From a virus: a stretch of 54,857 nt of DNA. Each line of letters opens with the position of its first letter. Positions within the stretch are counted from its first letter, which is position 1. The stretch lies in the IMG/VR virus record IMGVR_UViG_3300035698_027343; one strand, written 5' to 3'. The notes under the pieces were generated by a model. It saw only the letters and a list, made by a program, of their open reading frames with translations. It searched no databases and was not told the origin of the DNA. Positions 48,788 through 49,145 of the stretch are shown piece by piece. Made by a program: the position numbers and the translations under genes.

Positions 48788-49080
48788 AAACGGCGCAGAA
48801 AGGCGTATAAGTACAGTGTATGGAGGTAGTGCAGGTGTCAATCTCGGTTAAAAGAAGCCAATGGGATGAGCCGCACCGAACCTAGAGTGGTCAGAGTTCG
48901 TAGGACCGCCAGGAACGTCAGGTACGAAAAGCCCACGTCCAACCGACCTCGAGGAGGCTGGAATACGGGACCTTCAGGGAGATACTAAAGGCCCGAGGGC
49001 GCCAGACCGTTCACTGGATTCCGGATACTGCGTATAGGAGAGGTGACTCAAGACCTCTCCGTTCTGGACAGCCTAGAAAA

Positions 49081-49118
49081 GGTGTGGCGTACGGGTTCGA
49101 GTCCCGTTGCCTCCGCCA
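49081..49118 (+). ncRNA. tRNA-like 3' domain (T-arm ACGGG-TTCGAGT-CCCGT, acceptor 3' strand, G discriminator, encoded CCA); 5' partner not identified
   Basis: Canonical GGTTCGAGTCC T-loop with a 5-bp stem, then 7 nt, then G, then CCA. There is no GGAGGCA-like 5' strand within 90 nt, so it may be a tmRNA-like or unconventional tRNA. Confidence 0.35.
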
Positions 49119-49145
49119 TTTACACGCTGGAGCTGGAGCTGAATC

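Follow-up and report, generated by a model that had tools for sequence, protein, structure and literature searches.

Near the right end of the window, as the 54,857-nucleotide stretch of viral DNA analysed here is called, a tRNA-like 3' end is encoded complete with its CCA, yet no tRNA 5' half lies beside it. The question raised by this locus is whether this 3' end belongs to a functional RNA, and of which family, or is the remnant of another gene. Its anatomy as given in the preliminary description is exact when read against the sequence: ACGGG (49091–49095), TTCGAGT (49096–49102), CCCGT (49103–49107), TGCCTCC (49108–49114), G49115 and CCA (49116–49118). The window contains a single GGGTTCGANTCCC-N10-CCA motif, and 100 dinucleotide-preserving shuffles contain none. 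Likewise, the T-loop-like pattern GGTTCRANTCC has a single occurrence across the 54.9 kb, which is the element at 49091–49118, and there is no second copy of the tRNA-like 3' end within the window. The combination of T arm, acceptor strand and CCA is far above chance expectation.

The standard detectors do not recognise this element. ARAGORN reports neither a tRNA nor a tmRNA in the whole window, and Rfam reports nothing at the gathering threshold; at E<=10 there are spurious matches only, plus a 14.4-bit truncated T-arm match to tmRNA_permuted. A 'tRNA-Glu' at 49023–49118, found by ARAGORN under relaxed settings, is poor, having a 2-bp D stem and three acceptor mismatches. The anticodon arm is absent from the element and there is no cloverleaf of 70–95 nt with D arm and anticodon arm. 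The preliminary description had held that the lack of a call by any covariance model would count against a tRNA-like element, and the ARAGORN and Rfam runs on the element made no such call. This criterion asks too much, since a conserved RNA with a tRNA-like end is still evident from comparative genomics.

It had been observed previously that no complementary 5' acceptor strand is present within 90 nt of the 3' end, and this is the case. The distant candidate put forward in its place, GGAGGTA, is at the distance that was estimated (about 285 nt, and 286 nt upstream by count), although the coordinate given for it, 48833, is 11 nt away from the true site at 48822–48828. GGAGGTA is the nearest and only fully complementary 5' strand upstream of TGCCTCC. 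A pairing heptamer is expected by chance somewhere within 350 nt with a probability of about 0.14, therefore the match alone proves nothing, and its credibility comes from its conservation in L180, the contig of the closest relative. The best reading of the RNA gene is a span of about 297 nt on the + strand, from 48822 to 49118. The parts of this RNA, and the features flanking it, are listed in Table 1.

Table 1. Parts of the candidate RNA and flanking features, with positions in the window.
Feature	Position	Strand	Basis
Promoter-like -10 element GTATAAG, 10 nt 5' of the RNA start	48805–48811	+	Conserved in L180; L172 has GTATAAG before its tmRNA
Acceptor 5' strand GGAGGTA	48822–48828	+	Pairs with 49108–49114: G-C, G-C, A-U, G-C, G-C, U.G, A-U
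Single-stranded segment GTGCAGGTGTC, D-loop counterpart	48829–48839	+	All positions identical in L180
Variable hairpin AUCUC/GGGAU plus GGUU/AGCC, loop AAAAGA	48841–48867	+	37% identity to L180; hairpin also in L180 and L176
Long-range helix, 5' strand GCCGCACC, P2 counterpart	48870–48877	+	Pairs with 49081–49088 in predicted folds; GAGCCGCACCG kept in L180
RNA body, about 200 nt	48878–49080	+	No recognisable tag frame, no assigned pseudoknots
Long-range helix, 3' strand GGTGTGGC, 2 nt 5' of the T arm	49081–49088	+	Predicted folds
T arm: stem ACGGG/CCCGT, loop TTCGAGT	49091–49107	+	Sequence; pairing probability 0.86–0.96
Acceptor 3' strand TGCCTCC, discriminator G, encoded CCA	49108–49118	+	Sequence and motif shuffle test
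Separate structured non-coding stretch, 266 nt, between the 45-aa ORF and the MVP gene	49284–49549 (core 49346–49436)	+	z = -5.9 (+), -4.0 (-)

The 7-bp acceptor stem formed from the two ends of the RNA, the adjoining T arm and the 3' NCCA together have the makeup of a tRNA-like domain. GGAGGTA and TGCCTCC are paired in two minimum-free-energy folds. In a wide sequence context the ensemble probability of this long-range pairing is only 0.11, owing to competition from a local extension of the T hairpin, and that of the P2-like helix (48870–77/49081–88) is only 0.26. The predicted folds also contain a strong hairpin, GGAGAGGT-GACTCAAG-ACCTCTCC, in the body at 49037–49060. Fold z-scores in sliding 172-nt windows over 48800–49131 are ordinary.

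L180 is a short contig, in which the 108-aa protein is 81% identical to that of the window; it includes the first 77 nt of the RNA and stops short of the 3' half. Between the two, 48822–48837 is identical at 16 of 16 positions and 48869–48898 is 77% identical, whereas identity at third codon positions is 61% and 41% in the two genes upstream. These parts of the RNA are conserved above the neutral level. The intervening hairpin at 48841–48867 shares only 37% identity with L180, yet it folds as a hairpin in L180 and also in contig L176. Invariant single-stranded and helix-closing segments beside a compensating stem would mark this as a functional RNA. Across the three lineages represented by the window, L172 and L176, the acceptor and T stems are 97% paired and four pairs have changed on both sides, a count that is inflated by the choice of the 5' strands of the window and L176 for their complementarity and that draws on only three informative lineages. 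The acceptor 5' strand carries compensatory changes relative to both L176 and L172. Taken as a whole, the upstream region shows no significant similarity; transcription would be from the GTATAAG element.

The 108-aa gene at 48152–48478 has homologues in other metagenomic phage contigs, and the position of the RNA relative to this gene identifies the locus. Eleven consecutive genes to its left, together with rIIA and rIIB to its right, are colinear with L172, L176 and L185, with amino-acid identities of 30–58%. Four of the related contigs (L172–L175) carry, on the strand of their 108-aa homologue and 62 nt beyond it, a canonical tmRNA for which ARAGORN gives the tag ANNNNGFAQQMAA and Rfam gives 82 bits to RF00023. 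In L172 this tmRNA begins GGGGATG and ends GCGGGTTCGACTCCCGC CATCTCC A CCA, and the sequence 3' of it, TTTTGACGC, is similar to the 3' flank of the window RNA, TTTACACGC. In L176 the same rightward gene block contains instead a candidate RNA of 185 nt (12091–12275, identical in L177, L178 and L179) that is called by no tool. It has the acceptor GGAGGCG/CGCCTCC, the T arm GAGGG-TTCGATT-CCCCC, U as discriminator and no encoded CCA, and its body is predicted to be an almost fully paired rod. Since colinear phages carry a tmRNA or the 185-nt RNA here, the window element sits at a tmRNA locus, and the L176–L179 RNA appears to be its sister. The interior of the window RNA is similar to the L172 tmRNA and to the L176 RNA at chance level only, so that homology is argued from position, from orientation and from the ends they have in common. 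Close relatives of the window itself were not found by blastn against phages and plasmids, nor by IMG/VR searches with three proteins and two DNA patterns.

The preliminary description preferred a tmRNA-like architecture to that of a tRNA. With respect to origin and architecture this is upheld by the syntenic tmRNA and the conserved 5' strand, whereas membership of the tmRNA family is contradicted by the third acceptor pair, the discriminator, the lack of a tag frame and the lack of calls. A G3.U70 wobble is the identity element of alanyl-tRNA synthetase. This pair is G.U in L172, while position 3 of the window RNA is A48824 paired with U49112 (A3-U70), as it is in L176. The discriminator at position 73 is A in L172, G49115 in the window and U in L176. 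No tag frame was reported by ARAGORN at default, -ps90 or -ps80, and reading the three frames by eye found no short tag-like frame; that of the GCC after GAAAA is open beyond the 3' end, and the others end GRY-stop and YCV-stop. The segment GUGCAGGUGUCAA is kept in L180 and resembles GGUGGCAA of L176, and is only a partial match to the tmRNA D-loop consensus GGAUUCGAC. When compared by eye, GGTGTC(AA) within the D-loop counterpart corresponds to GGTGGCAA in L176 and to GGATTCGAC in the L172 tmRNA. Judged by the third acceptor pair, the discriminator and the tag frame, the window element is not a tmRNA.

The likeness to a canonical one-piece tmRNA (SsrA, RF00023, including the L172–L175 copies) is nevertheless broad. 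It includes the genomic position and orientation in colinear phages, a 7-bp acceptor stem on a T arm with a TTCGANT loop and a 3' NCCA, a length of a few hundred nucleotides, a GG-containing single-stranded segment after the 5' strand, and the 3' strand of a long helix just before the T arm. Differences from it, besides A3-U70 and G73, are a D-loop counterpart of GGUGUCAA rather than GGAUUCGAC, an extra hairpin between this segment and the long helix, and a length about 85 nt below that of the L172 tmRNA; neither a resume codon nor a tag frame nor any assignable pseudoknot was found in it, and it is not called by ARAGORN or Rfam. The L176–L179 RNA resembles the window RNA in following the homologue of the 108-aa gene in the rightward block, in its GGAGG/CCTCC acceptor with A3-U70, in its non-A discriminator, and in having a GGUGNCAA segment where tmRNA has its D-loop consensus, followed by a hairpin and then by a long helix abutting the T arm. 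It differs in being 112 nt shorter, in its paired-rod body, in its lack of an encoded CCA, in an A.C mismatch in the T stem, and in the presence of several small genes between the RNA and the 99-aa gene. No description of this 185-nt RNA was found in the literature searched.

The window RNA is probably, though by no means certainly, a diverged and functional derivative of a tmRNA. In this explanation 48822–49118 would have descended from a phage tmRNA and kept its tRNA-like domain: the 7-bp acceptor stem would be stacked on the T arm and followed by G-CCA, the conserved single-stranded segment would replace the tmRNA D loop, and the long helix would leave the domain where tmRNA has P2. The features lost would be G3.U70, which became A3-U70, A73, which became G, and a recognisable tag reading frame. 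Without the alanine identity (A3-U70, G73) and without a tag frame, the RNA presumably could not be charged with alanine and could not work as a tmRNA. It would be transcribed from the GTATAAG just upstream, RNase P would generate its 5' end at G48822, and its 3' end would be trimmed to the encoded CCA. The uncharged RNA would then act through its tRNA-like domain, most likely by binding host SmpB, or another factor that recognises the tRNA shape, and so interfering with host ribosome rescue during infection. The role as a decoy for SmpB in particular is suggested by analogy and is rather doubtful. Binding to SmpB is itself uncertain because the D-loop counterpart differs from the tmRNA consensus.

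The analogy is with mycobacteriophage DS6A, which encodes a tmRNA derivative, little more than the tRNA-like domain (TLD), for which such a role has been proposed (Hudson, Lau and Williams 2014, PMC4131195). A TLD-only molecule, whether or not it can be charged with alanine, strongly inhibits tmRNA, perhaps by titrating SmpB, an idea that is attributed to Mao et al. 2009 where it is mentioned in that paper (PMC4131195). The DS6A and window RNAs are alike in being phage-encoded, in keeping the tRNA-like domain, in having lost the message part and in a proposed action that does not need alanine charging. The DS6A RNA has little beyond the TLD, whereas about 200 nt of body remain in the window RNA. 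The phages differ too: DS6A is temperate and has an integrase, and none was seen in the window phage, which is of the rIIA/rIIB type. Phage-encoded tmRNAs are already known, as is this one TLD-only derivative. Three further IMG/VR contigs contain candidates with an alanine-type acceptor (G3.U70) and T arm that are not called by ARAGORN. In L210 and L252 these are of ~140 nt and end GGGTTCGACTCCCCACGCCTCC T, and in L284 the candidate is of ~85 nt and reads GGGGGCG...GGGTTCGAATCCCCCCGCCTCC T. These may be TLD-only tmRNA derivatives of the DS6A kind.

Two other accounts of the window RNA have to be weighed against that of a functional tmRNA derivative, and each is unlikely. The first of these is that it is a dying pseudogene, a decaying relic of an L172-like tmRNA without a function. 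The loss of G3.U70, A73 and the tag frame, the failure of ARAGORN and Rfam to detect it, and the chance-level similarity of its interior to the L172 tmRNA are all as expected of a relic. A relic would not be expected to keep the first 16 nt of the RNA identical in L180, where third codon positions have fallen to 41–61%, nor to maintain the neighbouring hairpin by compensatory change. Further, a perfect acceptor helix, a T arm and the same A3-U70 pair have been kept independently in the L176 lineage, and a relic of 300 nt would be unusual in a tightly packed phage genome.

The second account, which is just as unlikely, is that the RNA is functional and tRNA-like with a role unrelated to trans-translation. 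RNase P, the CCA-adding enzyme or a tRNA-targeting defence nuclease could be decoyed by it or have it as a substrate, another synthetase could charge it, or it could be a processing signal within the rightward operon. The evidence from conservation is the same for this account as for a tmRNA derivative. The T arm is of the type found in phage-encoded tRNAs, many of which contain the 20-mer GTACGGGTTCGAGTCCCGTT from the T arm region of the window. Like that of tRNA-Asp, the acceptor starts GGAG and is followed by G73, and the final 24 nt of the window RNA are identical to those of a real tRNA-Asp in L009 and to a tRNA-Asp fragment in L008. However, the discriminator is G in the window and U in L176, so there is no consistent aminoacylation identity. 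There is also no anticodon arm, the interior is similar to tRNA-Asp at chance level, and the locus is orthologous to that of a tmRNA rather than a tRNA. A retained tRNA-Asp 5' half was considered separately and rejected, since the interior similarity is at chance level and a D-loop match made by eye is not significant.

It is very unlikely that the element derives from a tRNA-Asp or tRNA-Ser gene as an orphan 3' fragment, such as an attP core or another recombination scar. The portion from T arm to CCA is what integrative elements carry, as the 3' portion of a tRNA gene (Islander principle, PMC4383910), and the displaced tRNA fragments of integrated elements (Williams 2002) likewise have a T arm and acceptor 3' strand without an adjacent 5' half. 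In the metagenomes the exact 20-mer was found in one tRNA-Asp (L009) and in one orphan tRNA-Asp 3' fragment (L008), and the identity of the last 24 nt to a real tRNA-Asp is a further likeness to a displaced fragment. When the T stem is left free, matches to the window acceptor are mostly tRNA-Ser, and tRNA-Ser 3' orphans with the same acceptor are common in genomes. On the other hand, no integrase or recombinase was found across 48 kb leftward and 10.8 kb rightward, both flanks are phage (rIIA/rIIB on the right) rather than host, the element is single copy, and the 20-mer was found in 0 of 185,579 species-representative genomes. A displaced fragment would leave unexplained the conserved 5' strand 286 nt upstream and the tmRNA of the relatives at the orthologous locus.

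A tRNA gene with a large intron, of group I or another type, or a two-piece permuted tmRNA with its 5' strand downstream, is hardly credible: the existence of an intron-split phage tRNA with the same T arm (L151), the weak truncated tmRNA_permuted match of 14.4 bits and a permuted call by ARAGORN at -ps70 using AGAGGCA at 49302 are outweighed by single-deletion scans (all plausible 5' exons x 3' exons) that give no more ARAGORN tRNA calls than shuffled interiors, by the absence of any Rfam group I match at E<=10 on 391 nt, by chance-level similarity to the Azoarcus and Anabaena IC3 introns, by the noise in relaxed permuted calls, of which the DS6A control yields 57 in 50 kb at -ps80 (about one per kilobase), and by the A1.C72 mismatch, A3-U70 pair, lack of an identified tag and 45-aa ORF inside the would-be spacer of the permuted candidate.

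Three related phage lineages have three states of one locus: a working tmRNA, a ~300-nt RNA that is without a tag and would not be of the alanine type, and the 185-nt RNA. Such a natural series could be used to address what a phage gains by supplying ribosome rescue as against blocking it. It is possible, although not favoured, that these RNAs form a distinct and undescribed phage subfamily derived from tmRNA, present in at least two rIIA/rIIB-type lineages and having a tRNA-like domain, A3-U70 and a non-A discriminator. Its members would not be alanylatable and would be inhibitors or hijackers of ribosome rescue or of another reader of the tRNA shape, for example a defence nuclease. The lineages of this subfamily would otherwise be related to phages that supply a working tmRNA. 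Binding to SmpB, if it occurs, would make this a naturally occurring RNA that inhibits trans-translation, a pathway that attracts interest as a target for antibacterials. Derivatives of this sort are missed entirely by ARAGORN and Rfam, and may therefore be frequent among large phages.

The DNA of the window comes from a large phage of the rIIA/rIIB type; rIIA-like and rIIB genes follow on its right in an overlapping ENA contig. Among the products encoded in the window are a baseplate J-like protein, a sigma factor, a GroES-like protein, a DNA ligase and an SNF2 helicase, together with very large proteins without a family match. No integrase or recombinase domain was found in the ORFs scanned in the window or in L135. 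Some other possible features of the region were considered and rejected. A prophage junction had been suspected from a GC step near 49.5 kb, where the rise in GC is the MVP coding sequence itself and the right flank is phage. An apparent branch of the assembly graph at the T arm is a coverage break, as the two ENA contigs ending there share a 13-nt overlap and are exact matches to the window. Two copies of the 12-mer CCTAGAARAGGT were considered as arm-type repeats; by a hand estimate this number is within chance for a region of 760 nt.

The interval 48.79–49.55 kb, reported in the preliminary description as poor in ORFs, is mostly so, with the exception of a 45-aa ORF (MLELLYTAWTEAPLWASVSISVLLAGSAVAVLPWREKDWPKRSED) at 49146–49283. 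This ORF is preceded at 7 nt by a GGAG Shine-Dalgarno sequence, and its product is predicted to have one hydrophobic segment; it comes right after the CCA of the RNA and is a gene call in the ENA contig. The non-coding stretch between it and the MVP gene (Table 1) is the most structured in 42–54.8 kb. A 10-bp stem, TGCCGGGCGG/CCGCCCGGCA, encloses two hairpins here, one of which has the loop TCGTCCCCCCCCA (C run at 49396–49403). There is no Rfam match to this stretch. L172 has a counterpart after its tmRNA, at 10860–10975, in which a 16-bp stem surrounds a poly-C loop and the 13-mer GTCGTCCCCCCCC is common to both. This stretch is probably not part of the 48822–49118 RNA, though it is conserved beside it, and it may act as RNA or at the DNA level.

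Directly downstream, at 49550–52258, is a full-length homologue of the major vault protein (MVP) of 902 aa (Pfam MVP_shoulder, 3.5e-18). Viral MVPs have been reported before (bioRxiv 10.1101/2023.11.10.566534). The closest relative of this one (52% identity) is encoded on a 156-kb contig whose genes look phage-like, and there are homologues at 36–37% identity in the huge phages LR756500, LR756501 and LR756503. It has about 2,200 matches, the named ones being mostly from Myxococcota, and MVP is not present in L172 or L176. The host of the window phage may belong to Myxococcota. An RNA linked to MVP, as an analogue of vault RNA, was considered and rejected, since there is no such RNA upstream of the MVP homologues in Nannocystaceae, in the huge phages or in the contig with the closest MVP. 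Stable folds are also predicted at 52160–52411 (z = -4.6 and -3.9), over the end of the MVP gene and the next intergenic gap, and this may be a terminator. To the left of the RNA, 48480–48651 has an unusually stable predicted fold (z = -4.9) inside a 92-aa ORF, for which a search found no homologues.

Two tRNA features were observed in the comparison contigs. At 8700–8891 of L151, and in the same form in L152, an insert of ~105 nt interrupts a phage tRNA-Leu(UAA) gene in its anticodon loop, between CTT and AAAATCC, which is the classic position of the tRNA-Leu group I intron. This gene is inside an array of 12 tRNA genes and is missed by ARAGORN. The orphan tRNA-Asp 3' fragment of L008, at 11545–11605 in a bacterial contig of 66.6% GC, extends from the anticodon loop CTGTCAC to the 3' end. 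It adjoins thioredoxin and ArsR-type genes, has no integrase within 11 kb, and resembles the displaced fragments found at the far ends of integrated elements.
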